From Patescibacteria group bacterium (GTDB taxonomy: Bacteria > Patescibacteriota > Patescibacteriia > 2-12-FULL-57-11), in NCBI GenBank assembly GCA_004297205.1, contig SCUL01000002.1, positions 188,594-252,593 on the forward strand: a stretch of DNA of 64,000 nucleotides. The letters run 5' to 3'. A program made the translations under genes and the position numbers. The stretch's first letter is position 1. Every line of letters begins with the position of its first letter. The notes below the pieces were generated by a model, which was not told the origin of the DNA, searched no databases, and was given only the letters and a program-made list of their open reading frames with translations. Shown one piece after another: positions 7,071 to 40,354 of this stretch.

Positions 7071-7145
7071 TGGTAGCCCCAAGGGGAATCGAACCCCTCT
7101 TTCTTGGATGAGAACCAAGTGTCCTAGCCGATAGACGATGGGGCC
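7071..7145 (-). tRNA. tRNA-Glu (anticodon CUC)
   Basis: The reverse complement reads GGCCCCATCGTCTATCGGCTAGGACACTTGGTTCTCATCCAAGAAAGAGGGGTTCGATTCCCCTTGGGGCTACCA. It folds as a cloverleaf: acceptor GGCCCCA/TGGGGCT, anticodon loop TTCTCAT, T-loop TTCGATT, and an encoded CCA. Its architecture resembles typical bacterial tRNA-Glu. A -35/-10-like TTGTCA-17-TATCTT sits upstream. Confidence 0.75.
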
Positions 7146-7241
7146 GCGGAATGCGCGGGAAAGATAGCAACAGAGGCCGCTCTTGACAAGGACCGAGGAC
7201 GCTTCCCAAGGCGTGTTCCTTCCGGAAATAACCCTGACGTT

Positions 7242-9868: not shown

Positions 9869-9906
9869 GAAAAAAAGAGGAGCCGAGCTCCCTACGGAGT
9901 CGGCTC
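9869..9906 (-). terminator. intrinsic terminator of the kinase-1 gene
   Basis: GAGCCGA...TCGGCTC hairpin overlapping the kinase stop codon, followed on the minus strand by CUCUUUUUUUCUG. Confidence 0.5.
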
Positions 9907-11679
9907 GCCGGCTTCCTCGTCCTCGACGTCTTCCTCGTCGTCGTCTTCGATCCCGCCGTGGCGGGACCGCGGACGCGGGGCCGTGCGGCGGAGCATGGTC
10001 TCGATGAGGTCGCAGTCGACCGCCCGCACGCCCGTCGCCGGACAGCGCGCTGCCGCGTAGGCGCGGCAACGGTCCCGCCAGCCGGCGGGCCGCGGGCGGC
10101 TGCCGAGCGCAGCCATGCAGGCCGCGCCGTGGGCGTTCACCTCCGCCACCCGCGGGTCGGGCGGCGGAAGCGGGACGGGACGCACGACCGGAGGTGCGAC
10201 GGCGCGACGGGTGGACGCGTCCGGATGGACGATGCCCGCGTCACGCGGCGCGGCGACGGCCACGACCGTGACAGTGCCGGCGTCAGGCCGACGGGCCACG
10301 GCAGCACCGCTGAGCGGAGCGGCTGCATCCGCTGCAGCGCGGACGCTCCGCGGATGTTCCGCGCCGGCCGCCGCCGCGTTCGACGCGACTCTGGCGTCGA
10401 TCGCCGCGGCGACGATCGCCACGGCAGCACCGATGCCCGACAAGAGGATCAGCAGCCAGGCCCAGACGGGCAGGCGGCGCATCGGCAGGGACGGCGGATC
10501 GGTGGAGATCAGCCGCTGGTCCACCGCGCCCGACCGCTTGCGCTCGGTCTTCTTGGCCGTATCGAGGGGATCCTCGGCGGTCTTGCGCGACAGGAGCGGC
10601 AGGGGCGCGGACCCCGTGACCGAGCCGAACGGCGCAGTCACGGCCCGCGGCGGCACCACGTCGAGCGGCACGCGCGGCGGCGTCAGGTCGACGCGCGACA
10701 GCGGGGTCAACTCCTGCGCATCCACCGACGGACGGACCGACGCGTTGAGGCGCGCCCCGGTGGCATGGGCCAGCCCGTCGCGGAACTGGCGGACGGTCGG
10801 CCGGTCGGCCGGATCCTTAGCCAGGCAGCCCATGACGAGCTCGTTGAGCAGGTCGGTGATGCCCGGCATGCGGTGCTTGAGCGGCACCGGCTGCTCGATG
10901 ATGACGCGCACCAGGTAGCTGTGCGCGGTGTCGAGCTCCTGCTCCTCGATCGGCATGCGGCCGCTGAGGAGCTCGTAGGCCATCACGCCCAGGGCGTAGA
11001 CGTCGACCTTGACGGTCAGCGCCCGTTCGCCCGCAGCTTGCTCCGGCGCCATGTACGGCGGCGTTCCCATGACCTCGTCGCGGTCCGCGAGCGTGACCTT
11101 GGCGACGTGCTGGTCCTGGAAGCAGCCGATGCCCCAGTCCGTGATCAGCACCTGGGTCACGCCCGGGTGCGTCTCGACGAACACGTTCGACGGCTTGATG
11201 TCGCGGTGGATGATGCCCTTCTCGTGGGCGTCGATCAGCCCGGCGCAGACCTGGCTGATGTAGATGATGGCCTGCTCGAACGGGATGCGTCCGTTGCTCC
11301 CCGCGTCGCGCAGCTCGTCCATCATCTCCTCGAGCGTCTTGCCCCGCACCAGCTTCATCACGACGAACGGTATCCCGTTGAAGGGCGGCAGCTTGGCCAC
11401 CCCGGACTCGAACACCTGCACGATGTTGGGGTGCTCGAGCTTCATCATGATGTCGGCTTCGCGCTGGAAGCGCGCCACCGCCTCGGCCACCTGGCCGAGA
11501 TCGGTGTTCAGCAGCTTCACGGCCCGCACGGGATGACCCGGCGTCGGCACGGTGGCATAGACGCGACTCATGCCACCGGTTCCGAGAAGCCGCCCCAAGG
11601 TGATGTGATCGTTGATCACGGCACCCAGATACGGATCTTTGTCCGGCGTCAGCGGCGCCGGCGGCATGCTTTTGCTCAT
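9892..11679 (-). CDS. Hanks-type serine/threonine protein kinase with single TM and extracytoplasmic Pro/Ala-rich tail ending in a 4-Cys module
   Basis: ORF trimmed to the ATG at 11679 (MSKSMPPAPL), preceded by the SD GGGAGGTGGAGG. Kinase motifs: GTGGMSRVY, VAVK-like Lys (AVKLL), HRDIKPSNVFV, DWGIG, GTPPYMAPE. The TM is LPVWAWLLILLSGIGAAVAIVAA. The C-terminus is ..ACMAAL..C..Y..A.C......CDLIE..L followed by an acidic tail. Confidence 0.85.
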   Translation of the reverse strand: MSKSMPPAPLTPDKDPYLGAVINDHITLGRLLGTGGMSRVYATVPTPGHPVRAVKLLNTDLGQVAEAVARFQREADIMMKLEHPNIVQVFESGVAKLPPFNGIPFVVMKLVRGKTLEEMMDELRDAGSNGRIPFEQAIIYISQVCAGLIDAHEKGIIHRDIKPSNVFVETHPGVTQVLITDWGIGCFQDQHVAKVTLADRDEVMGTPPYMAPEQAAGERALTVKVDVYALGVMAYELLSGRMPIEEQELDTAHSYLVRVIIEQPVPLKHRMPGITDLLNELVMGCLAKDPADRPTVRQFRDGLAHATGARLNASVRPSVDAQELTPLSRVDLTPPRVPLDVVPPRAVTAPFGSVTGSAPLPLLSRKTAEDPLDTAKKTERKRSGAVDQRLISTDPPSLPMRRLPVWAWLLILLSGIGAAVAIVAAAIDARVASNAAAAGAEHPRSVRAAADAAAPLSGAAVARRPDAGTVTVVAVAAPRDAGIVHPDASTRRAVAPPVVRPVPLPPPDPRVAEVNAHGAACMAALGSRPRPAGWRDRCRAYAAARCPATGVRAVDCDLIETMLRRTAPRPRSRHGGIEDDDEEDVEDEEAGEPTP

Positions 11680-11827
11680 TGTCAGAGACCTCCACCTCCC
11701 GTCAGACAAAGGGACGGGCGGGTTGCCCGCACACTTGCATGGAAAATCGGGGTCGTCAACCCCGTTCTGGAATAAAAAATGGGGACGATCCGGGAGCCCA
11801 TGAAGGCTCTCCCGAATCGTCCCGCAC

Positions 11828-13425
<1,598 letters not shown>

Positions 13426-13584
13426 TCCTGGAGACACGATGCCGGCGATTGCCGCCGGTACCGCCCCAGGAACCGCGCAACATACGCGGTTTCTGCCGCT
13501 TTGTCAAGCCGGCACAGGCACCGGCCTGAACAAAACGACCAGCGGAGTACCGCCGGTCTTTTCTACGAATTCCTTGGGATTTTG

Positions 13585-14877
13585 TTACGTCCAAGGCGGA
13601 TCCTGGCGTACCAGGACCTGTGGTGCGCGGAGCGGGTCGGCCATCAGCTCCTTTACGACTTTTTCCATGCGCGCGCCCTGGGAGCCCTTCACCAGGAGGA
13701 CGTCGCCGATTTTGATCTGGCCCTGGAGCCACTTTCCAGCCTCCTCCGGCGTGGCGAATTGTTGAACCGCCTCCGCAGCCATGCCGGCATCCCGCGCGCC
13801 GCGGGCGATGTCGCGCGCGCGCTCCCCGGCCGTGACCAGCAGATCAACGCCGCGGTCGTGCGTCTCCGCGCCGAGGTCTTTGTGAAGCTGCTCGCTGGTC
13901 GGCCCCAGTTCCAACATGTCGCCGAGCACGGCGATGCGCCGATCGTCCTCGTCCAGCTCGATCGCGGCGAGCGTGCGCAGCGCTTCGCTGGCCGCAAGCG
14001 GCGAAGAATTGTACGTGTCGTCGATGAGCGTGGTGTATTTGATGCCGGGAATGACGCGCATCCGTCCGGGCGGCGGCACGTAGGTGTCGAGTCCTTCCAC
14101 GCAATCGAGCACGTTCATGCCGAGCCGCATGCCGACGGCCACCGCGGCGAGCGCGGACCCCGCGGCCGGCGCGCTGATGGCTTCGCGCAAAAAGACCGGG
14201 ACGATCTGCCCCTGCCATGAAATCTTGAAGGTCATGCCGGTGACGGCGATGCCGTCGGAGCCGCGCGGCCGGTCGAGCTTGGGTTCGAGCGCCACGGCCC
14301 GCAGATCGGCCTCCGGTGCCAGCCCGTAGGTCACCGCAGGACACGCCGCTTTGGCGCGGGCGGCCGCGGCGCGGGGCACGTCGGCGTTGATGACGGCCAA
14401 GCCGTCGGCCGGAAGTGCCGCGATCATCTGCTCCTTTTCGGCGGCGTACTCGCCGAAAGAGGAAAACTGCGAAAGGTGGGCCGGCGAAATCGCCGTCAGG
14501 ACGCCGATCCTGGGCTGGACCACGGCCAGGTGCCGCGCCATGTCGCCCGGCCGGTCGACCCCCAGCTCCAGCACCAGAATTTCCGGGTAGGCGCCGCGGA
14601 ACAGCAGGACGCCGAACCCGCGCAGCACGACGCCGATCCAGCCGAGCGGATTCCGCCCGGGCGAATCCACGCCGATGATCGTGAGCGGCAGGCCGAACTC
14701 CGTGTTGTAGTTCTTGCGGCTGCGGCGCACCCGGAACCGGTGGCTCAACACGGCAAAGACGGCGTCTTTGGTGGACGTTTTGCCGACGGAACCGGTGATA
14801 CCGACCACTGCGGGCTGGTATTTGGCGACGATCCGCGCGGCAAGCCAGGTCAGGAGCGAGACAAGAAGCGACTTCAT
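13585..14877 (-). CDS. murF: UDP-N-acetylmuramoyl-tripeptide--D-alanyl-D-alanine ligase
   Basis: N-terminus VVGITGSVGKTSTKD (Mur ligase P-loop), NYNTEFGLPLTI, and Mur ligase middle and C-terminal domains. Confidence 0.85.
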   Translation of the reverse strand: MKSLLVSLLTWLAARIVAKYQPAVVGITGSVGKTSTKDAVFAVLSHRFRVRRSRKNYNTEFGLPLTIIGVDSPGRNPLGWIGVVLRGFGVLLFRGAYPEILVLELGVDRPGDMARHLAVVQPRIGVLTAISPAHLSQFSSFGEYAAEKEQMIAALPADGLAVINADVPRAAAARAKAACPAVTYGLAPEADLRAVALEPKLDRPRGSDGIAVTGMTFKISWQGQIVPVFLREAISAPAAGSALAAVAVGMRLGMNVLDCVEGLDTYVPPPGRMRVIPGIKYTTLIDDTYNSSPLAASEALRTLAAIELDEDDRRIAVLGDMLELGPTSEQLHKDLGAETHDRGVDLLVTAGERARDIARGARDAGMAAEAVQQFATPEEAGKWLQGQIKIGDVLLVKGSQGARMEKVVKELMADPLRAPQVLVRQDPPWT

Positions 14878-20746: not shown

Positions 20747-20765
20747 CTCGGCAGCTGATCAGCAA

Positions 20766-20792
20766 AACCCGCCATCTGGCGGGTTTTTGTTA
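20766..20792 (+). terminator. intrinsic terminator downstream of tRNA-Pro
   Basis: CCCGCC-ATCT-GGCGGG hairpin followed by TTTTTGTT. Confidence 0.6.
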
Positions 20793-20799
20793 TCATAAG
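20766..20799. repeat. direct repeat, left copy (tRNA-Pro terminator region), bounding low-GC islet 1
   Basis: AACCCGCCATCTGGCGGGTTTTTGTTATCATAAG matches AACCCGCCGTACGGCGGGCTTTGTGTTATGATCG at about 22671..22704 at roughly 80% identity. Confidence 0.5.
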
Positions 20800-22670
20800 G
20801 GCGTATGCCCAAGACAATAAGCGGCGATGCGTGAGAGCTCCCTCAAAAGCCGGCCGTTCTGCTGGCGCTGATCGTTGCCGTCCGGCGGCCGGACATCTCA
20901 ATGATACATGATCTAAACGTGCTGTAAGCTCGTCATATACAGACGCTTTACATACTCTGAGAACATGTACGTGATGCCTTCCGGTTTCCTACGTTCTCCA
21001 ATATTCGTGATTGGTGGATAACCGCTATGCGCATAGACCGCCAGCCGCGGAGCAACAGATTCCGGCACAACGCGCCGGAATTCAGCGTAGACGCGAGACG
21101 CATGTGCCGAGTTAGCAGTGACAAGAACGTTCAGCGATCTCCCTTTTATTTTTGCCAGCGCTTCGAGACGTCTTGCGACGAAACGAGCATTCCCTTCCGT
21201 GTCTACGGATTGCTCGTCGGGAATTAAAATATCGAACGGAACAACCGGAGGGAAATCTCCCAACGGCTTAAGCCCGGGCATTCCTTTGAATTTTTGATCG
21301 TATGTGTCAACCAACAGAGCAGCGATGGTTTCATCCGCCTCGCTAAACTGTGCCCGAGCCCCGCCATCCTCTTTGACGTCATGGGGTTGCTGCTTCCCCG
21401 CCGGAATTGCAAAGGCTTCAGGAAACGCATTCAGTGGTTCGCGAGCAAAATAGCCCTGGAGTCCGCCCTCATAGGACGCAAGAACGACGACAGCATCGAC
21501 GCTCCCCCACTTCTCTTTGATGTCTTCAAGTGAGTTCGCCTTCCCGGGGTGATTCTCGGGAAGCGATAAGTTTTCCATTGAACGTTCAAGAAGATCGCTC
21601 AGTTTTATATTTTCTTTCTCTGACGGATGAGCACCGTAGAGTTCGTCGAGTTCTTTGTACATCGCAACCCGTTCTTTGTTGTGAACAGCGTTATCAAGAA
21701 TCTTTGCAGAAAGTTCTCGGGCTCGATCCTGGTCGGCCGGAGAAAGCGATGCATTGAGTTTCTCAATGACAAAGGCAGCAAAAATATCCGACACGGAAAG
21801 TCGGCTCGGCCGCTCCGGATATGCCAAACTGTTTTTCGGATGATGAAATTTTTCTTCTTTCAGCAACAGACCGAGGTCTCTTGCCTCCGGAAAGAGTGAT
21901 TCGTAATCAATAGGAGCACCGCCATTCAAAGCATTGAAAATCGCACCGAAATCCGGATCTCTTATAGAGAGGCTGTAATCGGCCCAATCTCTTTTGTTTT
22001 TGACGACGCCGGCTTGATCGAGCGCCGGCCCCACCCTTTGCCAAAAACCGCTCTCCCGTAAGAGATCTGAAAATGTTTCAAACCGAAAACCGTATTTTTC
22101 AATATATGCATCGCGCTGATCGGCCGGATTGACGTGATCAATGTATGTGAGTTTGCAGATCGGCCTCTGATGAGGCACATCGACCACTGTGTCAAAACGA
22201 TCGTCAATAACCTTGCGACACCACTCCTGTTTTTCCTCACGAGCATCGGGGCCGAACTTTTTTAAAATACTTTCCGCTTCACGATTTGCCACTTCATCTT
22301 CCTGATCCCTTTCAAGACGCTCGATGAGGGGCTTGATCGTTCCAAGAAGCGAATCAAGAGATTCAAGTTGTAATGCAAGGGTCGCTTCGTCGGAAGTCTC
22401 GTCAAAAAAAATTTCCGCCCGGACTGAAGCGTTTTCCACTATCTTTTGAAGTTCTTGAGACGGGCGCTCTCTCATGGCTTTCCCGCCAATTGCTGCTTCC
22501 GCGCCAGAAGCTGCTCGCGACGAAGAAGAACGTACTCCTGCAATTTTTTTATTTTTTTGAGTGTATCTTTTTTCTGTGGTTTCGCCATAATGCCGTATAC
22601 GAGATAGCGCTTTCAACAAAAAACATCTTACATTGAGAGTGCTTCGCGTTCAAGACAGAGAAATCACCCG
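20800..22670. mobile_element. putative integrated single-gene islet (low-GC, no integrase) next to tRNA-Pro
   Basis: GC drops to about 45-50% across the cargo ORF versus about 65-70% in the flanks. It abuts a tRNA and is bounded by the imperfect direct repeats described above. Confidence 0.4.
20913..22619 (-). CDS. hypothetical protein (568 aa) with C-terminal DUF218/YdcF(ElyC/SanA)-like domain; cargo of low-GC islet 1
   Basis: A long ORF in an AT-richer segment. The C-terminal region ..DAVVVLASYEGG....LNVLVTANSAHASRVYAEF.. resembles the DUF218 'LVTSxxHMxRA' core. The N-terminal ~380 aa are unrecognised. Confidence 0.55.
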   Translation of the reverse strand: MLKALSRIRHYGETTEKRYTQKNKKIAGVRSSSSRAASGAEAAIGGKAMRERPSQELQKIVENASVRAEIFFDETSDEATLALQLESLDSLLGTIKPLIERLERDQEDEVANREAESILKKFGPDAREEKQEWCRKVIDDRFDTVVDVPHQRPICKLTYIDHVNPADQRDAYIEKYGFRFETFSDLLRESGFWQRVGPALDQAGVVKNKRDWADYSLSIRDPDFGAIFNALNGGAPIDYESLFPEARDLGLLLKEEKFHHPKNSLAYPERPSRLSVSDIFAAFVIEKLNASLSPADQDRARELSAKILDNAVHNKERVAMYKELDELYGAHPSEKENIKLSDLLERSMENLSLPENHPGKANSLEDIKEKWGSVDAVVVLASYEGGLQGYFAREPLNAFPEAFAIPAGKQQPHDVKEDGGARAQFSEADETIAALLVDTYDQKFKGMPGLKPLGDFPPVVPFDILIPDEQSVDTEGNARFVARRLEALAKIKGRSLNVLVTANSAHASRVYAEFRRVVPESVAPRLAVYAHSGYPPITNIGERRKPEGITYMFSEYVKRLYMTSLQHV

Positions 22671-22704
22671 AACCCGCCGTACGGCGGGCTTTGTGTTATG
22701 ATCG
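22671..22704. repeat. direct repeat, right copy bounding islet 1
   Basis: See the left copy. It includes a hairpin CCCGCCG-TA-CGGCGGG that looks like a degenerate copy of the tRNA-Pro terminator. Confidence 0.5.
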
Positions 22705-22806
22705 CGAGGTTCGACCCCAAGCTCCTGGTCTGCGCCTGCCGAGCATTGACGATTGCAAAAACCCTTACTACAGCGTATAGTACCGACGTCATTTTTCTTC
22801 ACCCGC

Positions 22807-23184
22807 ATGAAATTCCCCGTTCTCATCGCCCTGCTCGTGGTCCTCGCCGCCGGCGGTATCGGTGGCGGCATCTGGTACACCAACACCCAGCCCGGCGCGC
22901 TGGACGGTTTTGCGTCCTGCTTGGGCGAGAAGGGCGCCAAGTTTTACGGCGCCTTCTGGTGCCCGCATTGCGCCAACCAGAAGAAGCTGTTCGGCAAATC
23001 CGCCAAAAAGCTCCCTTACATCGAGTGCGGCGTCGCCGGCAACACCAGCGCCCAGACGCAGGTCTGCACCGATGCCGAGGTCAAAGGCTACCCGACCTGG
23101 GTCTTCGCCGACGCTTCCCGGCTGAGCGGGGAAATTCCCCTCCAGACGCTCGCCGAAAAGACGGGCTGCGCGCTCCCTTCCTGA
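22807..23184 (+). CDS. thioredoxin-fold thiol-disulfide oxidoreductase (CPHC active site), membrane-anchored
   Basis: ORF 22753..23184, with the start taken at the ATG at 22807 (MKFPVLIALLVVLAAG...). Active site FWCPHCANQK. Typical partner of bacterial VKOR. Confidence 0.7.
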   Translation: MKFPVLIALLVVLAAGGIGGGIWYTNTQPGALDGFASCLGEKGAKFYGAFWCPHCANQKKLFGKSAKKLPYIECGVAGNTSAQTQVCTDAEVKGYPTWVFADASRLSGEIPLQTLAEKTGCALPS

Positions 23185-27041: not shown

Positions 27042-30215
<3,174 letters not shown>

Positions 30216-30280
30216 ACCCCCCTGCTTGAAGATGGATAAAGCGTAACGCCCTGACTATAACACACTCTGGCTCCTCCGTA

Positions 30281-30329
30281 ACACAAGATATTGTGTGTGG
30301 ATAACCACGTGGACCACAATATGTTGTGT
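30281..30329. promoter_or_regulatory. tandem NrdR boxes upstream of nrdJ
   Basis: ACACAAGATATTGTGT (about 30281-30296) and CCACAATATGTTGTGT (about 30314-30329) match the NrdR palindrome consensus acaCwAtATaTwGtgt. Their centres are about 32 bp apart, as is typical for NrdR operators. Confidence 0.6.
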
Positions 30330-30358
30330 TGTACGACCCTTCCCGCGCGAAAATCCCC

Positions 30359-30934
30359 CTAAAACGGCATGGTCAGGTTCACGGGCGGGCGGCTTTGGGG
30401 AATCTCGATCGTGACCGGCACCACGACCTCCGTCCCCTGCCGGTCCTTGTACTTGAGATGCCGGTACTCCCGCGCGTAGTCGAACAGGTCCTTGGTCACC
30501 TTCACGTCCTGCAGGCAGTACTCGCGCAGCTTGTCGATCTCGCCCTTCTTCCAGTACTCCACGGCCATGAGTCCGGTGCCGCTCTTGCCGATGCCGAGCG
30601 TCCCCTGAGCCACGTCGTCGAGCTTCAGCCGGAAACCGATCTGCTTCTCCAGGATGTACATCAGGTCGATCGCCGGCAGCTTGGTGAGGTCGCCGGGGTA
30701 GTAGCCGTTCAAGACCGGCAGGTCGAAGCCGACGATGTTGTAGCCGATGACGACGCTGGCCTGTTCCATCTTCTTCCAGAGAGCCGGCAAGTCGGCCTCC
30801 AGATACGTCGTATACTGCCCGTCGGCGTAATCGTACGCCCCGACCAGGGATACCTTGAGCAATGACGGGTCGTATTTGCCGACCTCCTGGAAGGTGTTCT
30901 GGGTTTCGATGTCGAAGACGAGCGGGAAGCTCAT
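30359..30934 (-). CDS. DEDDh-type 3'-5' exonuclease domain protein
   Basis: ORF trimmed to the ATG at 30934 (MSFPLVFDIETQN..). Exo I motif FDIET, Exo II YNIVGFDLPVL, Exo III with His (EYCLQDVKVTKDL). Confidence 0.7.
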   Translation of the reverse strand: MSFPLVFDIETQNTFQEVGKYDPSLLKVSLVGAYDYADGQYTTYLEADLPALWKKMEQASVVIGYNIVGFDLPVLNGYYPGDLTKLPAIDLMYILEKQIGFRLKLDDVAQGTLGIGKSGTGLMAVEYWKKGEIDKLREYCLQDVKVTKDLFDYAREYRHLKYKDRQGTEVVVPVTIEIPQSRPPVNLTMPF

Positions 30935-31030
30935 GGGAGTCGGGAAAACCACGGCTATGATACGGCCGACCGCGCGGTCGGGCAACGCTCCATGCTATAC
31001 TTGGAAACGTTCGCTTTTTCACCATTCCCT

Positions 31031-31426
31031 ATGCGCCGTCTCGCCGTTATCCCCACGTTCGCCGCCTTGCTCCTGCTCGGTGCCGGCTGCGCCGCCGCGC
31101 CGTCAAGTGCGCCGGAGTCCGCACCGGCCGCCGTGACGCCGTCGTCCAACCAAGGCATCGTCATCATGGTCGACGAAAACGGCTTTTCCCCGGCGACCAT
31201 CACCGTCCCGGCAGGAACGGAAGTCACCTTCAACAACACCGGGAGCAGTCCGCACCAGCCCGCCTCGGCCGTCCACCCCACGCACCAGCAGCTTCCGGGA
31301 TTCGATGCCCTGCGCGGCCTGCGGCCGGGCGAAAGCTACTCCTACACCTTCACGAAGGTCGGCACCTGGAAATACCACGACCACCTGAACCCGTCGCGGA
31401 CCGGCTCGATCACGGTCACGGAATAA
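31031..31426 (+). CDS. cupredoxin-like (plastocyanin/azurin-type) lipoprotein
   Basis: ORF 30992..31426, with the start taken at the ATG at 31031 (MRRLAVIPTFAALLLLGAGC, a lipobox). C-terminal motifs HQPASAVH...YHDHLNPSRTGSITV resemble type-1 copper ligand spacing (His...Cys/His...His...Met-like). Confidence 0.55.
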   Translation: MRRLAVIPTFAALLLLGAGCAAAPSSAPESAPAAVTPSSNQGIVIMVDENGFSPATITVPAGTEVTFNNTGSSPHQPASAVHPTHQQLPGFDALRGLRPGESYSYTFTKVGTWKYHDHLNPSRTGSITVTE

Positions 31427-31430
31427 CAAC

Positions 31431-31461
31431 AAAAAACCGGCCTGCGAAGGCCGGTTTTCTT
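31431..31461. terminator. bidirectional intrinsic terminator between the cupredoxin gene (+) and murA (-)
   Basis: AAAAAA-CCGGCC-TGCGAA-GGCCGG-TTTTCTT. It has A-tracts on one side and T-tracts on the other. Confidence 0.6.
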
Positions 31462-32716
31462 ATGCCACGCGCGTGATGTCGGCGCCCAGCGCCCGGAGGC
31501 GCTCCTCAATGGCTTCGTAGCCGCGGTCGATTTGGTAGATGTTCTCGATTTTGCTCGTCCCAGTGGCGGCCAAAGCGGCCACGACGAGAGCGAGCCCCGC
31601 CCGGATGTCGGGCGATTCGAGCGTCGTCCCGCGCAGCGGCGTCGGTCCCTGAACGAGGGCCCGGTGCGGATCGCAGAGAATGATCTCGGCGCCCATCTTG
31701 TTGAGTTTCTCCGTGAAGTACAGGCGACCCTCGAAAATCGTCTCGTGGACCATGGAGCTGCCGGTGGCCTGGGTCAGCAGGACCGTGAACGGCGGCTGGA
31801 TGTCCGTCGGGAAACCCGGATACTCGTGGGTCATGAGCGGCTGCGCCTGGAGCTTCTGCCAGGGTTTGACCGCGATGTCGCCGCCGTTGACCGTAAATGG
31901 CACGCCGAGCCGCTGCAAATACTCGAGGGGCACGGAAAGGTGCTCCGGTTTGGTTCCGGTAATCGTCATCTGGCTCTTGGTGGCCGCGGCCAGCGCCAGG
32001 AAACTTCCGGCTTCGATGCGGTCCGGCATGATCTCGGCCGAGCCGCCGGACAGGCGCTCCACGCCCCGGATGCGGATGGTCGGCGTGCCGGCGCCGGAAA
32101 TCTTGGCGCCGCAGGAGTTCAGGAAATCGGCCAGAGCCACCACCTCCGGCTCCATGGCACAGTTTTCCAGGACCGTTTCGCCCGGCACGCGGCTGCCCAA
32201 AATCACCAGCGCTTCAGTCACGGTGTGGCTGACGAAGGGAAAGACGAAGTGGATCGGCGTCAATTTCTTGGAGGAAAAACGAATTTCCTTCTCCCCCTCC
32301 TCGACCGCAGCGCCAAACGCCTTGTAGCCGGCCAAAAACAGGTCGATCGGCCGACGGCCGATGGCGCAGCCGCCCGGGAACGGCAGCGTGGCGGCGCCGC
32401 GGGTCACGAGCAAAGAGGCCACGAGCAGCGTGGAAACCCGGATTTTGGGGGCCAGCACCTCGTCGAGCACGTCAGTCGAGACGGAGCGCGGGTCAATGAT
32501 ATACTGGTGCGGATCCGGTTCCGTGACCGTGGCACCCAACCCCTTGAGGATTTCCACCATGCGCCGGACATCCTCGATCCGGGGCACGTTGGTCAGCGTC
32601 ACCGGCCCGTCCATCAGCAAGGACGCCGCCAGAAATTTGAGGGCGGCGTTCTTGGCTCCGGAAACGGCGATCGTGCCCGACAGCGGACGGCCGCCGGTGA
32701 TCTCGAAATGCGCCAT
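31460..32716 (-). CDS. murA: UDP-N-acetylglucosamine 1-carboxyvinyltransferase
   Basis: ORF trimmed to the ATG at 32716 (MAHFEITGGRPLSGTIAVSGAKNAALKF...). EPSP-synthase-fold MurA signatures throughout; active-site Cys region (PGGCAIG). Confidence 0.9.
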   Translation of the reverse strand: MAHFEITGGRPLSGTIAVSGAKNAALKFLAASLLMDGPVTLTNVPRIEDVRRMVEILKGLGATVTEPDPHQYIIDPRSVSTDVLDEVLAPKIRVSTLLVASLLVTRGAATLPFPGGCAIGRRPIDLFLAGYKAFGAAVEEGEKEIRFSSKKLTPIHFVFPFVSHTVTEALVILGSRVPGETVLENCAMEPEVVALADFLNSCGAKISGAGTPTIRIRGVERLSGGSAEIMPDRIEAGSFLALAAATKSQMTITGTKPEHLSVPLEYLQRLGVPFTVNGGDIAVKPWQKLQAQPLMTHEYPGFPTDIQPPFTVLLTQATGSSMVHETIFEGRLYFTEKLNKMGAEIILCDPHRALVQGPTPLRGTTLESPDIRAGLALVVAALAATGTSKIENIYQIDRGYEAIEERLRALGADITRVA

Positions 32717-32760
32717 AATGGACGGGAATATAGCAGATTCGGACGAGGATTTCAAGTCCC

Positions 32761-34080
32761 ATGAAAAACCGCACCCAAACCCTGATTACCGTGATCCTGA
32801 TGCTGCTCTTCCTGACCAGCGTTCCTTTGGTGCTCCTGAACACCGCCGGCTACCGCATCAATATCCGGACTCGGCAGTTGGAACGCACTGGCATCCTAAT
32901 CCTCCGTTCAGCGCCTCCGGACGCCCATATCCTGCTGGACGGCGTGCTTCAGGACGAGCGGACGCCGGCCCGCCTCTCCCAGCTCCTGCCCCGCGAATAC
33001 CGCGTCACCGCGGAACGCGAGGGCTACCGCCCCTGGAGCAAGCTGCTGACCGTGGAAAGCCAGCGCTCGACCTTTGCCGAAGACATCATCCTGTTCCCGG
33101 ACCAGCTGCCGGTGCGCGTCGCGGACGCCGCGGCGCGCAGCCTGGCCGTGGCCGTTGACGGCACCCTGGTCTACGACGATACGACGGGATCAACCACGGA
33201 AATCCACTTCCTCCGGCCGAACGGCGAGGAAACCACGGTCACGCGCGTCAGCCACCGCAGCGGCGGCGATCAATGGTTGCGACTGCGATGGAGCCCGGAC
33301 GGACGAACGGTACTTGCGTTCGGCGACATCGCGCCGACCCTGGTCAGTCTCGACGGCGCGCAGCGCGTCCTGACAGTGCCCGGACCGCTCTCCGAGGCCG
33401 TCTGGAGCGGCCAGGACCTCTATCTGCTGGCCGACGGGCGGGCGCTCGTCCAATCCGAAGACGGCGCCACCCGGCCTGTCACCACGTCAACGGCCGCCCT
33501 GTTGTGGCGTCAGGAAGGGCTGACGTACGTCGGCCGCGCCGCCACCGGCACAATCAGCGTGGACGTGCTCGCGGCCAACGGCAGCATCCTGCGCTCCGCG
33601 CTGCTGCGGCTGCCGGGAAACGTCGGGTGGTACCGCTTCCTCCCCTCCCCGAACGGCCTGCTCACGCTGCTAGGTGACGGGCGGGTGCGGGTCTTTGACG
33701 CAGAAAGCGGTGCGACGCGCATCGACCGGCCGGCCTACGACGCCGTGTGGCGCCTGGACGGCACGCCGGAACTGCTGCTGTCGACCAATTTCGAAATCTG
33801 GACGGTCAACCCGGATGACCAGGCGCAGCTGCTGACCCGGCTCGGCGCGCCGATCCGGGGTGCCGCCTGGTATCCCGGCGGCACCCACGTCCTGTACGCC
33901 TCCGGAGACGCGGTCGCGGCCATTGAGCGCGACGACCGCGGCGGCCGCATCATCACTCCGCTCTTCACGCTGCCCGATCTGGGCGCCTTCATCGTGGACG
34001 AAAAAGGAGCCGCGGTCTTTGCGGCCGCCGCTCCTGCCGGCAAACCGGGCATCTTCCGCTATCCGATTGTGATCCCTTAA
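32761..34080 (+). CDS. PEGA domain protein with C-terminal beta-propeller (TolB-like) repeats
   Basis: N-terminal TM; PEGA-like segment (SAPPDAHILLDGV..YRVTAEREGYRPW); repeated WD/TolB-like blades (DG..L.Y...DG..). Confidence 0.6.
   Translation: MKNRTQTLITVILMLLFLTSVPLVLLNTAGYRINIRTRQLERTGILILRSAPPDAHILLDGVLQDERTPARLSQLLPREYRVTAEREGYRPWSKLLTVESQRSTFAEDIILFPDQLPVRVADAAARSLAVAVDGTLVYDDTTGSTTEIHFLRPNGEETTVTRVSHRSGGDQWLRLRWSPDGRTVLAFGDIAPTLVSLDGAQRVLTVPGPLSEAVWSGQDLYLLADGRALVQSEDGATRPVTTSTAALLWRQEGLTYVGRAATGTISVDVLAANGSILRSALLRLPGNVGWYRFLPSPNGLLTLLGDGRVRVFDAESGATRIDRPAYDAVWRLDGTPELLLSTNFEIWTVNPDDQAQLLTRLGAPIRGAAWYPGGTHVLYASGDAVAAIERDDRGGRIITPLFTLPDLGAFIVDEKGAAVFAAAAPAGKPGIFRYPIVIP
34028..34080. 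repeat. direct repeat, left copy (the 3' end of the PEGA/propeller gene), bounding low-GC islet 2
   Basis: The 53 bp CCGCTCCTGCCGGCAAACCGGGCATCTTCCGCTATCCGATTGTGATCCCTTAA matches 35327..35379 at about 80% identity. It encodes ..APAGKPGIFRYPIVIP*. Confidence 0.6.
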
Positions 34081-34081
34081 T

Positions 34082-35296
34082 TTAATTCGTGATAAATTTT
34101 TGAAAACGGTCGGTACTTGAGTCGTATTCTACGGTTATCTCCGTATCTTCGTATTGTCCACTCGATGTGCTGTACCGCAGAAGAGCTATATTCACGATAC
34201 GCCCATCAAAAGCCCGTACCTCTGAAGAGTACTCGGGGTACTGCTCAGGAGACTTCAAGAAATCGGAAAAAATAGATTCCTGGGCGATATCTCGCCGCAC
34301 TTCGTGAATTCCTGCCCGGTCTTCTCGAATCAATCTGTTAGGATATTCGATGCGGTACGCAATCCTTGGGACAAATGATGCATGCCCATTTTGCGCAATT
34401 GCGGCATCGTACCCCGGCAGACGGAAGGTAATCCTGCTTCCGTCGAAGGACGTCTCCGGGAATGGGAAAAGGTCCAAACCACCTCCGTACACGGGCACAC
34501 ACTCCACACCTATCGCCGTTGGCAGCGAATACGTCTGCCCGTTAATCAAGATTGCCGAAACAGTGGAAGTCGCCTTAGAAGAATCGGTCACCTCATCGCG
34601 AACCTGTTGACAATTTGATTCTTGAACGATCTGGGCCTGCATCGCGACCGTCCCAATTCGCGCGTCCAAAGAGGTCCCAGAGCGGTTGAAATCTCCGACC
34701 TCGGTCTCGGCGAGAATCGCACCGCTGGCGTCGAAAAAATAGCTATGGATAGTACGGACTGCTTCACACGGACTCGTTAGTAAATGAGCAGCGACACCAT
34801 CGCTCCACTCGTCTAGAGAGAGATACACACACTGGTTGCTTGCCGCTACGTCAAGCACCCTGCGCAAGCTTCGCCCATTCAAATCAGCCAGCCATACAGT
34901 TGTAAAATCTTCCGGTTTTGACCTGACCAGGAGCACGACCGAATCAAGTGTCAACTGCTTCGCATCCTGGTACTGATCTTGTGAGAACGGGGCAAAAGCA
35001 ATCAGATCCTCGCGTGTTGAGGTCGCCAGCCCGACCAGGGCCGTCGAAGTCCGTTCAGATTCTTCCAATATAGTTCCCTTCTTGGGTTCGATGTTTGGAG
35101 AGGGTGATTGGGCACTCTGCAATGCACGAAGGTCCTGTTCTTTCTTTTGAATGATGCTCCTCAACATCGAAAGATCCGACGATGATTGAACAGACATCCC
35201 GGACAGAGTGACGGTCGCTGATGCAAGAACGAAAAAAACTAAAACAAGGAAAGCTTTTGCATTTCTTCCAAATGTATTCATGCAAAAAATCGTCAC
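34082..35296 (-). CDS. hypothetical secreted protein (404 aa), cargo of low-GC islet 2
   Basis: Signal peptide (AFLVLVFFVLASATVTLSG). GC is about 45-50% versus about 68% in the flanks. No recognised domain. Confidence 0.6.
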   Translation of the reverse strand: MTIFCMNTFGRNAKAFLVLVFFVLASATVTLSGMSVQSSSDLSMLRSIIQKKEQDLRALQSAQSPSPNIEPKKGTILEESERTSTALVGLATSTREDLIAFAPFSQDQYQDAKQLTLDSVVLLVRSKPEDFTTVWLADLNGRSLRRVLDVAASNQCVYLSLDEWSDGVAAHLLTSPCEAVRTIHSYFFDASGAILAETEVGDFNRSGTSLDARIGTVAMQAQIVQESNCQQVRDEVTDSSKATSTVSAILINGQTYSLPTAIGVECVPVYGGGLDLFPFPETSFDGSRITFRLPGYDAAIAQNGHASFVPRIAYRIEYPNRLIREDRAGIHEVRRDIAQESIFSDFLKSPEQYPEYSSEVRAFDGRIVNIALLRYSTSSGQYEDTEITVEYDSSTDRFQKFITN

Positions 35297-35326
35297 CCGA
35301 ATCTGGAATCCATTCTACCACGAACC

Positions 35327-35379
35327 CCGCTCCCGCCGGAAAAACCGGCATTTTCCGGTATCCGATTATTGTCCCGTAA
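35327..35379. repeat. direct repeat, right copy: a displaced, still in-frame copy of the PEGA/propeller gene's 3' end
   Basis: CCGCTCCCGCCGGAAAAACCGGCATTTTCCGGTATCCGATTATTGTCCCGTAA translates in one frame to PAPAGKTGIFRYPIIVP*. This shares 15 of 17 residues, plus the stop codon, with the C-terminus of the intact gene. Confidence 0.6.
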
Positions 35380-35384
35380 TAGAC

Positions 35385-35535
35385 TTCCCCATCGCCTTCT
35401 TCGCAAGAAGGGGCAGCTCTTGGTCATTGCGAGCGGGAGCGAAGCAATCTCGTGTAGGAGATTGCTTCGTCGCTCACTGCCGTTCGCTCCTCGCAATGAC
35501 CAGGTACACTCCCTCTTGCGAAGAGGGAGACGGAG
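35385..35535. repeat. ~150-bp composite palindromic (MITE-like/REP-like) element
   Basis: The left arm ..CCTTCTTCGCAAGAAGG..GGTCATTGCGAG..AGCGAA..GCAATCTC and the right arm GAGATTGC..TTCGCT..CTCGCAATGACC..CTCCCTCTTGCGAAGAGGGAG are reverse complements around the centre GTGTAG. Each end carries a small CTTCGCAAG/CTTGCGAAG hairpin. It lies between the islet-2 right repeat and the 3' end of rmlA. Confidence 0.45.
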
Positions 35536-35544
35536 GGAGTCTTC

Positions 35545-36621
35545 CTAGATTTCGACGCGCGCGTTATCGCCAATGATGAACTTGTAGCCGTGCGGGTGGG
35601 TGCTTTGCTTTGAGGTGACGCAGGCGTCCTTGCCGATCAGCGAATCCACGATGCGGGCGTGGCAGTCGACGGTGACGTTGTCGAAGATGATGCAATGCTC
35701 GAGTTCCGTGTTGCGGATGACCGAGCCGTTGCCGATGGCCGTGTACGGCCCGATGTAGCTGGCTTCCACCGTCACGTTCTCGCCGATCGAGACCGGCCCG
35801 CGGACGAGCACCCCCGGACCGATCTTCGAACCTTTCCCGATGTGCACCTTGCCCTGGAGTATTGCCGTGGGGTCGATCTGACCCTCGCGCGTGGCCTCGC
35901 CCGGGGTCATCTCGTCCAGAATCAGCTGGTTGCCCTCGAGCAAATCTTCTGGCTTGCCGGTGTCCTTCCACCAGCCGGTGATCTCGGTATGACCGACATT
36001 CTTGGCATTGCGCAGATACCAGTTGTAAATCTCGGAGATTTCATATTCGCCGCGCGCCGACGGCGTGATCGTGTCGTAGGCCTTGAAAAACTCGTTGTTG
36101 AACAGGTACAGACCGGTCACGGCGTAGTCTGATTTGGGCACGGCCGGTTTTTCTTCGTACCGGACGATCTTGCCGTCGACGAATTCCGGCACGCCGAAGC
36201 GCCGCGGGTCCGGGACTTTCGCGATCGTCATGAGCGCATCATGGCCGCCGTTTTTGAACTGTTCCACCAGATTGCGGATGTTACCGAGGACGACGTTGTC
36301 GGACAGGTAGAACAGGAAGGGGCTGTCGCCGATCCAGGCCTGGGCCTGTTTGGGCACGTTGGCGATCCCGAGCGGCCCGCCCTGCTGCTCAAAAAAGTGG
36401 ATCTTGGCGCCCCAGCGGCTGCCGTCGCCGATCACCTTCTGGAGTTCGGTCTCGCCCGGGTTGGTGTTGATGGCGATGTCCGTGATCCCCGCATCCACCA
36501 CCTTTTCGATGGCATGGAAAATCATCGGCTTGTTGGCAAGCGGGATGAGGTGCTTGTTCCAGGTGTGGGTGATGGGGCGCAGGCGCGTGGCGCGCCCGCC
36601 GCCCGTCAACACGGCTTTCAT
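35545..36621 (-). CDS. rmlA: glucose-1-phosphate thymidylyltransferase (long form with C-terminal left-handed beta-helix)
   Basis: N-terminus LTGGGRATRLRPITHTWNKHLIPLA (sugar nucleotidyltransferase motif G-x-G-T-R-L); C-terminal hexapeptide repeats. Confidence 0.8.
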   Translation of the reverse strand: MKAVLTGGGRATRLRPITHTWNKHLIPLANKPMIFHAIEKVVDAGITDIAINTNPGETELQKVIGDGSRWGAKIHFFEQQGGPLGIANVPKQAQAWIGDSPFLFYLSDNVVLGNIRNLVEQFKNGGHDALMTIAKVPDPRRFGVPEFVDGKIVRYEEKPAVPKSDYAVTGLYLFNNEFFKAYDTITPSARGEYEISEIYNWYLRNAKNVGHTEITGWWKDTGKPEDLLEGNQLILDEMTPGEATREGQIDPTAILQGKVHIGKGSKIGPGVLVRGPVSIGENVTVEASYIGPYTAIGNGSVIRNTELEHCIIFDNVTVDCHARIVDSLIGKDACVTSKQSTHPHGYKFIIGDNARVEI

Positions 36622-37560: not shown

Positions 37561-38112
37561 CTAGAGCAACCCGGCCTTGGCGAGCGCGGCCAGCGAGCGG
37601 CCGTCGCGCGAGACGCGGCAGAACGCCTGCGGCGTCATCCAGCCGTCACCCTCCTTCTGGGCGACGCGGACCACGTGCACGCCGATGTGCCCGTCGATCC
37701 GCTTGAGGTTGGCGCTGTAGTGCAGCGCCCCTTCCTGCGGGAGGACCTCGCCCTTGGAGAGCGACGAGGGCAGCAGCTCGACGTCCGGCTGCCCGTCCAC
37801 GCCCTTCGTGGGGCGCGTGCGGACCATGCCGTCCGACGCGAGCTCGATGATCACCTGCCCGACCTCGCGCAGCTCCCCGGGCGCAGCGGTCTTGCCCGGT
37901 TCCTCGACGACGACGGGCGCGAGGTAGCCGCCCACGTCGCGCATGACGACGGCGTAGTACTTGCCGTCCTGCCGCCGGATGCTGCCGGTGGCCGGGTCGA
38001 ACACCCAGGCCTGCTTCTCCTCGAGAGCGACGAGGACGGGCCCGCCGAAGTGCTGCGCAAGCGCGGCCTCGGCCTCGGCAAGCGTGACGACCTTCTTCTC
38101 ATCCTGACTCAT
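37561..38112 (-). CDS. hypothetical protein (184 aa)
   Basis: ORF 37561..38241 trimmed to the ATG at 38112 (MSQDEKKVV..). No recognised domain. High GC like its neighbours. Confidence 0.5.
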   Translation of the reverse strand: MSQDEKKVVTLAEAEAALAQHFGGPVLVALEEKQAWVFDPATGSIRRQDGKYYAVVMRDVGGYLAPVVVEEPGKTAAPGELREVGQVIIELASDGMVRTRPTKGVDGQPDVELLPSSLSKGEVLPQEGALHYSANLKRIDGHIGVHVVRVAQKEGDGWMTPQAFCRVSRDGRSLAALAKAGLL

Positions 38113-38268
38113 GACGGACCCCTGAGCGCCATGCGGCGCTTCGGGGCACCCTTCGGCTCCGGCCAAACGGATGCCTGGTATCTTGCTCGGGCGCCGGCCC
38201 GACCAGCCCCGCAGGGCGAACCAGTTCGCAGACGCTAACAAAAAATCGGGAAAAAAGAAAGGGCCGTA

Positions 38269-39063
38269 TCACGCGCGGATACGACCCAGGTGCTCGTAGA
38301 GATGCAGCAGCGCCGTGGCGGTGTGCTGGTCGCTCAAACCGAGCTCCTTGCGGCGACGGATCACTTCCTCCAGAGGGTACGTCCGGATCCCCATGGCCTT
38401 CGTCCCATGGAGCTTCTCGAGCGTCGCGCCCTCGGCAAGCCGAAAGCACAGCAGCCAAAAATCGACGATGACCGTGCTCATGCCGGTGTCCTCGGGCGCC
38501 GAGCCGAGCGGCAGGACGCATTCCGAGCGGACCAGTCCGCTCGTGAGGAGCGGCACCAGCTCGCGGCCGAGCAATCCGAGCGGGATGGCGTGATCGGAAC
38601 TGCCCGACACGCCCTTCAGCAGCCGGTCGACGATGGTTTCCTTCGAATTCACGGAGGACCACTCGCGCGGCAGCTCCGTCGACCAGGCGCTCTCCTCGCG
38701 CACCAGCAGCGTTGGCCGATGTTGGCGGACGAAGACGAGTTGGTCCTCGACCATCACGATGATCGCGCAGCCGCGGCGCTCGGCGCCGCTCACCGCGAAC
38801 TTCATGAAGAACGAACCGTGCTGACCGTCCGGACGGATGACCCAGAACTGGACGATCGCGTACCACGGGTTGATGGAAACGCTGATCAGGTCCAGGATCT
38901 CGAACTCGCCGCGCTGCCAGGTGCCGAGCTGCACCAGCGGTGTCAGTTTGTATGTCGTCAGGATGGCGTTGATCTGCTTGAGCCGCCGCTCCTGTGATGC
39001 TTCCCTGCTTCCTGCCGCTTCCTCGTCCGGAAGCGGCTGTACCGCTTCCTTCCGAGCACTCAT
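38269..39063 (-). CDS. hypothetical protein (265 aa)
   Basis: ORF trimmed to the ATG at 39063, preceded by the SD GGAGG. No confident domain; a central segment is vaguely Nudix-fold-like (not called). Confidence 0.5.
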   Translation of the reverse strand: MSARKEAVQPLPDEEAAGSREASQERRLKQINAILTTYKLTPLVQLGTWQRGEFEILDLISVSINPWYAIVQFWVIRPDGQHGSFFMKFAVSGAERRGCAIIVMVEDQLVFVRQHRPTLLVREESAWSTELPREWSSVNSKETIVDRLLKGVSGSSDHAIPLGLLGRELVPLLTSGLVRSECVLPLGSAPEDTGMSTVIVDFWLLCFRLAEGATLEKLHGTKAMGIRTYPLEEVIRRRKELGLSDQHTATALLHLYEHLGRIRA

Positions 39064-39145
39064 AGGGGAACCTCCTCTGGGAATACACAACCAAATTTTT
39101 CCCTCCGCGTCAAGCCTCCCGGGATAAAAAAGAGGCGCCGCCCGC

Positions 39146-39562
39146 TCAGCGGGAGACGCGAACGATGTCGTTGTAGCTGCGCGTGCGGTCCGTGCCGCCC
39201 TGCGGCTCGACCCGCTCGCCGAAAACCATGTGGTCGTCGTCGAAGGACAACACGCTGTCCTCGGACACCCGCTGCAGGCAGACGACGCCGTCGGCGCACC
39301 AGACGAGGATCTCGGCGCCCGGCTCCGCGGACGATGACAGCCCCTGGAGCATCCGCGGGCCGCGACGGCTCACGGTCCACTCGCCGGAGACCACGATCCG
39401 CGCGATGACGTCCGCGAAGATCACCCAGACCTTCTTGCCGTCCTTGAGCTCCTGCTCGGTGCCGAGCGCTTTCCAGAACGGGATGCGCGTCCGCTTCTCT
39501 TTCGGCGGCATCCACATTTCGGCCGTGTCCGCATCCTCCGGAAACTTCTTCGGTTCTCCCAT
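39146..39562 (-). CDS. hypothetical protein (138 aa)
   Basis: A co-directional ORF that fills the gap in the operon. No recognised domain. Confidence 0.4.
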   Translation of the reverse strand: MGEPKKFPEDADTAEMWMPPKEKRTRIPFWKALGTEQELKDGKKVWVIFADVIARIVVSGEWTVSRRGPRMLQGLSSSAEPGAEILVWCADGVVCLQRVSEDSVLSFDDDHMVFGERVEPQGGTDRTRSYNDIVRVSR

Positions 39563-39649
39563 TGAACTTCTCTGCTCCTTCCGTGGAACGAGTCAATCAA
39601 GAAAGAGGTGGCTCGTCAACCCGCCCAGCATAAAAAAGGAGGCCTCCCC

Positions 39650-40354
39650 TCAGGGAAGCCAGGCGTCCGGAACGCCGCAGGCCAGCAGGTCGGCCTTGAG
39701 CTGCAGCACGTTGGCCTCCGTCACCTCGGAGAACCAGACCGTCCGCATCCCCCGCCCCTTGGCGGTGACGACGTGTTCCACCAGGTCGTCGATGAAGACG
39801 CAGTCCCGTGGCGCGACCGGCGGGTCGCTCTTCAGCTGCGCATTCACGTAGGCGAGCAGCGTCTCGAAGTAGTCCGGATCGCGCTTGCGACGGCCGATGA
39901 GATGCGAGTCGCTGTGGACCCGCAGCATGGCCCGCGCCCGGGGCAGCCGGTCGTAGACGCAGTACGACCGCTCGTCGACGTTCGAGGCCGAGACGACCGG
40001 CACATGCCGGGCCAGCGCCTCGAGGATCTCGATCACCGGAAGGATCGGCTCCGTCAGCGCCTCGACCCAGATGCGGGCGAAGCACTCACGGCTCCATTCC
40101 ACGGGCGGACGTTGGCCGCGGCAGAGCGTCAGCTCCACGTAGTCGGCGAACGCCTCCCAGGTGACCGTCCCGCGCTCCAGCGCCTGGAACGGCTCGCTTT
40201 GGTGCAGCACCGGATGGATCTCGTGCGCGGGGCGGCCGAAGATCCTGCCGACCTCCCGCGCGCGGTAGCTGTCGTTGTAGACGATGCGGACGTTGCCGGC
40301 ATCGGCGAGAATCAGCCGCGGTGGGCCCGCGGGATGCTTCTGGGGAAAGGACAC
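39650..40354 (-). CDS. HAD-like hydrolase (putative)
   Basis: HAD-like motifs: N-terminal LILADAGNV (a variant motif I), VVSASN (motif II-like) and FIDDLVEHV (motif IV, DD). Competing shadow ORFs exist on both strands; this frame was chosen because of the motifs. Confidence 0.45.
   Translation of the reverse strand: MSFPQKHPAGPPRLILADAGNVRIVYNDSYRAREVGRIFGRPAHEIHPVLHQSEPFQALERGTVTWEAFADYVELTLCRGQRPPVEWSRECFARIWVEALTEPILPVIEILEALARHVPVVSASNVDERSYCVYDRLPRARAMLRVHSDSHLIGRRKRDPDYFETLLAYVNAQLKSDPPVAPRDCVFIDDLVEHVVTAKGRGMRTVWFSEVTEANVLQLKADLLACGVPDAWLP

Follow-up and report, generated by a model that had tools for sequence, protein, structure and literature searches.

A low-GC single-gene cassette at the 3' end of a PEGA-domain gene in Patescibacteria, flanked by a duplicated gene end

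The stretch of DNA considered here is 64,000 nucleotides (nt) from the genome of a Patescibacteria group bacterium (contig SCUL01000002.1, positions 188,594 to 252,593), hereafter the window. It carries a short, GC-poor segment with a single gene, the cargo, lodged at the 3' end of a gene for a PEGA domain-containing protein and bounded on both sides by copies of that gene's last codons. The arrangement supports an insertion of foreign DNA into the PEGA 3' end, as judged by sequence comparison. In the reading that we hold with moderate confidence, a horizontally acquired single-gene cassette of 1.3 kb would bear a mimic of the final ~45–58 nt of the PEGA gene, and would have entered by reciprocal recombination between this mimic and the real PEGA 3' end. 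The PEGA gene would then close on cassette-supplied codons (..VIP and a stop), the original end being left beyond the cargo, beside the neighbouring gene rmlA, to decay.

The two copies of the gene end lie at 34028–34080 and 35327–35379, both on the plus strand, and are identical at 43 of 53 positions in an ungapped alignment, in the same frame and with their TAA stops aligned. A repeat search extends the pair to 61 nt at 79% identity; the duplicated stretch measures 53–58 nt and its longest identical run is 9 nt. A chance or low-complexity match is ruled out, as the best ungapped 53-mer in 60 shuffles of 33001–36500 reached 33/53 (mean 30.4), and the 53-bp direct repeats of about 80% identity reported in the preliminary description are thereby confirmed. 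The left, attL-like copy is the real end of the PEGA gene (..AAPAGKPGIFRYPIVIP and a stop), composed of a core at 34028–34068 and a 12-nt tail, GTGATCCCTTAA, which codes for the working last three codons and the stop. The right, attR-like copy also keeps the frame and closes on its stop (..PAPAGKTGIFRYPIIVP), as had been described, and would be the displaced, non-functional original end. No third copy of the motif was found within the window. The segment between them (34081–35326) is 1246 bp long with a GC content of 49.9%, somewhat above the ~47% first reported, while the 5-kb flanks are at 63–64%; at third codon positions the GC fraction (GC3) is 0.52 in the cargo against 0.83–0.85 in PEGA and rmlA. 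Only one open reading frame (ORF) of its size is present, on the minus strand at 34082–35296, and it has no Pfam, PADLOC or PHROG match, so that the insert indeed contains no integrase. Neither a recombinase nor a transposase was found in the insert; a Pfam scan of 37 ORFs of the window gave none either, nor do the Pfam matches listed for the syntenic loci include one.

A second copy of the cassette comes from another sample. The 1315-nt Logan contig L008 (SRR22388055) matches the window along the entire 1246-nt insert at 92.4% identity, with the left junction and the spacer-to-core junction both as in the window. Read in the direction of PEGA, it begins in the repeat with CGGCAAACCTGGCATTTTCCGGTATCCGATT, continues with CTGATCCCTTAA and TTTAATTCG.., and ends in the repeat with ..CTACCACGAACCGCCGCTCCCGCCGGCAAACCTGGCAT. 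A contig with rmlA from the same sample, L033, was reached via the 90% cluster of the window rmlA. The two contigs open with an identical 30-mer and then split, L008 into the cassette and L033 into CGTTCTCCCCTAG, which overlaps the rmlA stop. Past the 30-mer L033 reads CGTTCTCCCCTAGATTTCC, a PEGA end (..GKPGIFRYPIVLP and a stop) whose TAG overlaps the rmlA stop as it does in the empty site of the relative L002. Logan contigs are built with k = 31; with this value assumed, the ends of the two contigs point to one common unitig, about 45 nt long (AACCGCC...TATCCGAT), that can be entered in two ways and left in two ways. Such a graph would be given by a genome in which the cassette stands between perfect direct repeats of ~45 nt. 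That L008 and L033 belong to one genome is likely, given the shared 30-mer and a CCT proline codon found in no other copy.

The two ends of the repeat differ in what they accompany. The left tail of the window (..ATCCCTTAA, then TTTAATTCG..) is found with the cassette in both genomes, and beside the cargo the stretch ..(C/G)TGATCCCTTAA has one difference in the 15 nt up to the stop between window and L008, with the adjoining TTTAATTCGTG conserved; the right tails of the window and the second genome differ at 5 of 15 nt, a contrast that is not significant by itself. The ending ..IP before the stop is confined to the two copies linked to the cassette, whereas native ends all read VP or LP. Since the left tail accompanies the cassette in both genomes, it is probably cassette-borne, and the cassette would supply the new last codons of PEGA. 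In L033 the right tail and the rmlA stop overlap in the manner of an empty site, hence the right copy would be the displaced original end; the tail adjoining rmlA appears to be the native one whichever reading of the L008/L033 graph holds. The earlier proposal that the element provides a replacement 3' end for its host gene is thus borne out by both tails. In the core, L008/L033 shows 4 differences in 42 nt to each window copy (equidistant, counted by hand). Those of the left copy are all at synonymous third positions, those of the right copy include a non-synonymous Pro-to-Thr change, as would be expected of a once-identical repeat with one copy still selected. The right copy of the window indeed appears to be decaying: it has T where seven aligned orthologues have an invariant Pro (column P429), and compared with the right copy of L008 it has lost 1 nt at the left edge. 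Similarity to orthologues does not decide which copy is ancestral, both being 45–47/54 identical to L001 and L002.

Two other explanations of the duplication were rejected. An assembly artefact is ruled out: an independent assembly of the source run (SRR8426588) yielded a 6585-nt Logan contig, L012, identical to window 29397–35981 and covering both repeats, which excludes binning or scaffolding errors, and the junctions match in the second sample. A leftover tandem PEGA paralogue is likewise ruled out, as only the final 53–58 nt exist, behind a spacer conserved in L008, and the L033 copy stands at the native junction. The same comparison bears on a third possibility, that the cassette is what remains of a larger integrative element, a prophage or island with an integrase, stripped to one cargo gene by internal deletion. 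Flanking att-like repeats without an integrase are a typical residue of such decay, and an integration scar at a tRNA-Pro gene of the relative L006 speaks for integrative elements in the clade. However, the same minimal 1246-bp content, collinear at 92.4%, recurs in the second genome or sample, and therefore the deletion would have to predate the transfer or to have happened identically twice; the cargo, moreover, has no phage, plasmid or viral-contig relatives. We regard this origin as very improbable.

The host gene (32761–34080, plus strand; Pfam PEGA, 29.9 bits) encodes a membrane-anchored protein of 439 aa, the last ~17 codons being the left repeat, and is named [quoted passage not shown] by NCBI. 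It belongs to a tiny family (8 clusters among 5.8 billion proteins), with orthologues of 53–86% identity in the syntenic loci. In all relatives the locus runs ribonucleotide reductase (RNR), RNase H-like gene, cupredoxin, murA, PEGA(+), rmlA(-), rmlD(-). The gene rmlA encodes an rmlA-like glucose-1-phosphate thymidylyltransferase (35545–36621, minus strand; Pfam NTP_transferase, 158.9 bits, and the NCBI name); it is the last gene of the rml operon, convergent with PEGA, and the right boundary of the insertion site. The PEGA/rmlA junction is the end of the rml operon and the border of a large surface-polysaccharide region.

Several distinct states of this junction are found among relatives, on which account it is a recurrent insertion point. 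Empty sites, which the preliminary description had proposed to look for, do exist: in L002 the PEGA and rmlA stops overlap (TTAA; CCCTTAAATTTC) and in L006/L007 the two genes are separated by a 16-nt spacer. The cassette itself, cassette A, is carried by the window and by L008, and is marked by the junction k-mers ATCCCTTAATTTAATTCGTG and CTACCACGAACCGCCGCTCCC. Another low-GC (0.475) insert, cassette B, occupies L001 4724–5872 with an unrelated 382-aa ORF of nucleotidyltransferase type (PF10706, 26 bits), whose stop overlaps that of PEGA and whose start is separated from the stop of rmlA by 15 nt; it has neither flanking repeats nor a second copy of the PEGA end. Gene C, a 344–346-aa ORF of native composition and without repeat, is found in L003, L004 and L005 and in a Hainich lineage (L011, L013, L028, L034 and L035). 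In L032 an unrelated GC-rich stretch (7078–7150), not a PEGA end, adjoins the stop of an rmlA that is 98.9% identical to that of L002 (synonymous divergence, dS, 0.04), and the contig stops after 73 nt; it is either a further junction state or a rearrangement. Among these occupants the duplicated gene end accompanies cassette A only. A contig search with the PEGA alignment returned two loci, both of lineages already found, and a search of metagenome DNA with the repeat core gave 17 matches, 16 of them due to chance and one (L028) from a known lineage.

Divergence of the cassette and of its surroundings provides a measure of relative age. Between window and L008 the cargo has a dS of 0.18 (47 synonymous differences in 288 sites) and a dN/dS of 0.27, so that it is a maintained gene under purifying selection. 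Between window and L033, dS reaches 0.67 for rmlA (109/247) and 0.84 for rmlD (about 100/197), and the difference in synonymous changes between cargo and rmlA/rmlD is marked (Fisher p about 1e-12 to 1e-15). The second host lineage is 13–15% diverged from the window, and L033 is no nearer to the window than are L001 or L002, both of which are without cassette A. Should L008 and L033 belong to a single genome, the cassette would be much younger than its host flanks and would therefore have been transferred between lineages; on that condition, it appears to have come to the same site in two lineages after their split.

These figures also weigh on the simplest alternative, in which a one-off illegitimate insertion, homology-facilitated or by replication template switch, duplicated 58 nt and the immobile product has since been inherited vertically. 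The 19% divergence of the window repeats roughly fits an age somewhat beyond the window/L008 split if the right copy drifts neutrally, with about 7 differences expected from the cargo dS and 10–11 observed, and the other junction genes lack repeats, so ad hoc insertions do occur at this place. Against this stand the roughly four-fold lower synonymous divergence of the cassette than of the flanking rmlA/rmlD in the apparent second host, the apparently perfect 45-nt repeat of the second sample, which is not expected over an equal time, and the left tail, which is cassette-linked and unlike native tails. Taken together this makes a one-off, vertically inherited insertion unlikely, if less so than the decay of a larger element.

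If a cassette with a PEGA-end mimic did recombine with the gene, the incoming molecule may have been a 1.3-kb circle that entered by a single crossover, or else linear DNA with both repeats, in which case homology would be provided on the left by the PEGA body and on the right, over a short length, by the right core. Joining by the general recombination of the host, for which DNA from uptake would be the substrate and the duplicated gene end a portable homology arm, comes close to being probable in our judgement without quite reaching it. In the candidate phyla radiation com genes are conserved, and in Saccharibacteria cassettes taken up by natural transformation are integrated through homologous recombination at a site between convergent genes (PMC10633639). 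The PEGA gene itself is mosaic: compared with L001, L002, L010 and L011, the identity of the window to L010 climbs from 0.65–0.77 to 0.80–0.89 over alignment positions ~360–1080, and in much of the same region that to L002 and L011 falls, which suggests homologous exchange between lineages inside the gene. The conserved com genes, the Saccharibacteria precedent and this mosaicism together make the homologous route plausible.

A site-specific recombinase supplied in trans from elsewhere in the genome, tyrosine-type and possibly Xer-like, is a possible but rather doubtful agent of the same event; the 45–58-nt PEGA end would then be a true attachment site, and the cassette a parasitic element that depends on that enzyme for its mobility, in the way of the microcin H47 island or of cis-mobilisable elements. 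The repeat is att-like in size, the cassette restores the gene end as 3'-end-targeting integrative elements do, the same site has been reached in a lineage 13–15% diverged, and integrase-less islands with long imperfect repeats are able to excise and integrate without RecA (PMC3191183). Furthermore, the core contains an 8-7-8 dyad of the form CCGGnAAA-N7-TTTTCCGG (window 34043–34065 and 35342–35364). It is perfect in the right copy of the window (CCGGAAAA-ACCGGCA-TTTTCCGG; matched by 4 of 2000 shuffles), 7/8 in L008/L033 and in the native PEGA ends of L002 and L011, and 5/8 in the left copy of the window. This dyad, identified post hoc, may mark a site of the recombinase type, or it may simply follow from the AGKPGIFR codons, which in part dictate it. 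Set against a recombinase in trans are also the empty search for such enzymes in the insert, the window ORFs and the syntenic loci, the lack of any cargo match in the viral contigs, phages and plasmids scanned, and the fact that no autonomous element with the same attachment site occurs in any fetched locus; neither a helper recombinase nor a related autonomous element was seen in the 64-kb window, on a contig of at least 856 kb. Between host recombination and a recombinase in trans we lean slightly towards the former. Of the site-specific integration that had been proposed, the insertion of foreign DNA at the PEGA 3' end is upheld, and enzymatic site-specificity is not established, because no recombinase was found, the identical run is at most 9 nt and homologous recombination gives the same structure.

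Several points weigh against an acquired cassette that enters through its copied gene end. The junction genes of L001 and of L003/L011 have no second repeat, therefore the mechanism would not be general to the site. With a longest identical run of 9 nt, neither RecA-type nor site-specific exchange works on the window repeats now, so that excision of the cassette from this genome is probably no longer possible. Homologous exchange over a 45-nt arm is inefficient between genomes 13–15% diverged, and the dyad symmetry of the core, typical of tyrosine-recombinase sites, favours an enzyme in trans. The linkage of L008 with L033 rests on assembly-graph logic, and the same graph fits equally well a free circle alongside an empty site, a mixed population or two co-occurring species. 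Lastly, within the window core and tail do not differ significantly in how far they have diverged (p = 0.09), so that separate origins for the two are no more than suggested.

Compared with described systems, the cassette comes closest to integrase-less islands with long imperfect repeats and to the flexible islets of polysaccharide loci. The mobility of the microcin H47 island of Escherichia coli relies on functions supplied by the host, a strategy which its authors call "parasitic" (PMC3191183; PMC5426353), and like it the present cassette has att-like repeats without recombination genes between them. The H47 island, however, is 13 kb long and multigenic, and experiments have demonstrated that it excises and integrates, whereas here one gene in 1.3 kb lies between copies of a host gene's coding 3' end, and mobility is deduced from comparison only. 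Cis-mobilisable elements (CIMEs) and decayed integrative elements have attL/attR-like bounds, carry no genes for recombination and presumably owe their mobility to a related element acting in trans; the cassette departs from these in that no related autonomous element with the same attachment site occurs in any fetched locus. Flexible islets that border surface-polysaccharide clusters are exchanged by homologous recombination in conserved flanking genes. The PEGA/rmlA site resembles them in its position at the end of an rml/glycosyltransferase region and in its different, often low-GC genes in each relative, but flexible islets normally have no duplicated flank, and here the duplicated gene end comes with cassette A only.

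Other families share fewer features. With the dusA-specific islands (PMC4482086) the cassette has in common integration in a conserved gene, a surrogate gene end that keeps the target functional and a direct repeat at both junctions; islands and prophages of that type have their own integrase beside the attachment site and extend over tens of kb, neither of which applies to the cassette. Direct repeats and empty sites are likewise what integrase-mediated 3'-end elements show, yet these encode an integrase and the cassette does not, which places it outside that family. Integron cassettes are similar in being single ORFs without their own recombinase, at a fixed site and co-oriented with upstream transcription. 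In the window, by contrast, there is no integrase (intI), no attI or attC-type folded site and no Rfam family besides tRNA, and the recombination sequence is a piece of host coding DNA. Nor does the insert resemble a transposon, insertion sequence (IS) or miniature inverted-repeat transposable element (MITE): no inverted pair joins its two ends, the duplication is 53–58 nt long and no transposase is present. From the integrase-less islands and the flexible islets the cassette departs in its minimal size of one gene, in having a coding 3' end for its repeat and in its occurrence in Patescibacteria.

To our knowledge, the mechanics of gene transfer in Patescibacteria are poorly described and classical integrases are scarce in them. 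Horizontal transfer is nevertheless known to shape their genomes (PMC12455944). At this locus a gene has been added to the end of a surface-polysaccharide operon with the neighbouring gene undamaged and no recombinase carried along. Every state is represented among the samples: sites that are empty, a filled site whose repeats have decayed, and a filled and apparently young one whose repeat is perfect. Should the copied gene end prove to be the vehicle of spread, this would be a very economical way of moving genes among naturally transformable, streamlined bacteria, and, if true, it would point to safe insertion sites and to designs for engineering such bacteria. It is a speculative and rather unlikely extension that Patescibacteria host minimal "homology-arm cassettes", made of a foreign gene and the captured 3' end or terminator of a conserved host gene, which would insert beside that gene in related species by host recombination alone and leave the gene unbroken, with a second example, islet 1, at tRNA-Pro. 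Patescibacterial genomes are small and poor in classical mobile elements, and their DNA-uptake genes are conserved.

Islet 1 (window 20750–22710) lies downstream of tRNA-Pro(CGG), with a GC content of 0.49 and a single minus-strand ORF (20913–22619; 568 aa) that has a weak DUF218 match. Its flanks share a terminator-like hairpin repeat (20758–20787 against 22663–22692, 77% over 30 nt; about 60 nt at about 70% in the alignment), and the 5' end of the gene downstream may likewise be duplicated, if faintly (20854–20882 against 22817–22845, 72%). The parallel drawn earlier between this islet and the cassette holds in so far as each has one low-GC minus-strand ORF with a repeated flank; the likeness is loose. 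The 9-mer TCACCCGAA occurs three times in the window, two of them at the right inner ends of the two low-GC islets (22664–22672 and 35293–35301). Its expectation is 0.6 per window and 2 of 100 shuffles reach three, too weak a signal to support a conclusion. In L006 (589–886), an insert of 109 nt separates tRNA-Pro(CGG) from a second, perfect copy of its 3' half (36 nt), and 14 nt of its 5' end recur upstream. The arrangement is an integration scar and demonstrates that the clade does undergo integrative events at tRNA-Pro.

The cargo gene (minus strand) is 404 aa long, as first described, if read from GTG 35296, and 399 aa from ATG 35281 (34082–35281), the latter being the version in the protein database, where NCBI names it hypothetical protein EPO33_02435. 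An N-terminal membrane helix is followed by a beta-rich, apparently extracytoplasmic domain in which Cys224 and Cys261 are invariant, and the product is most likely a membrane-anchored surface protein; the structure model is confident, yet it gave no informative fold match. The family is small, with 20 representatives (E <= 1e-3), some of which have a long C-terminal extension and none a significant Pfam domain. A search for homologues in other low-GC surroundings had been proposed as a check, and this was answered in part by a distant one, 43% identical, on a contig of 48% GC. A defence or phage function was rejected on the null PADLOC and PHROG results and on the lack of matches among IMG/VR viral contigs, phages and plasmids.

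The spacer between the cargo start codon and the right repeat (35282–35326) differs from L008 at 4 of 45 nt, and no sigma-70-like promoter was detected for the cargo. The gene is on the same strand as the rml operon and just beyond its last gene, and it may be expressed as an extra terminal gene of that operon; in an arrangement of the L033 type it would stand ~100 nt downstream of rmlA, where read-through could occur. Between the displaced PEGA end and the rmlA stop of the window there is a near-perfect hairpin of 165 nt (35380–35544), single-copy in the window, with an RNA minimum free energy of -92.9 kcal/mol (z = -9.5). It is present neither at the L033 junction nor at any other fetched locus, and is probably a separate, later insertion outside the cassette. 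It looks like a small palindromic insertion, of the MITE or repetitive extragenic palindromic (REP) kind, or an acquired terminator.

Two further features of the window may be recorded. The rmlD–rmlC interval (37561–40354) contains four small genes, where the equivalents in L001, L002, L003 and L006 have two to three; their sizes vary and most have no Pfam match, making this a second variable spot of the rml operon. Two adjacent genes for large Ser/Thr protein kinases (605 and 634 aa) occupy 9892–13732, the most GC-rich part of the window (up to 0.745).

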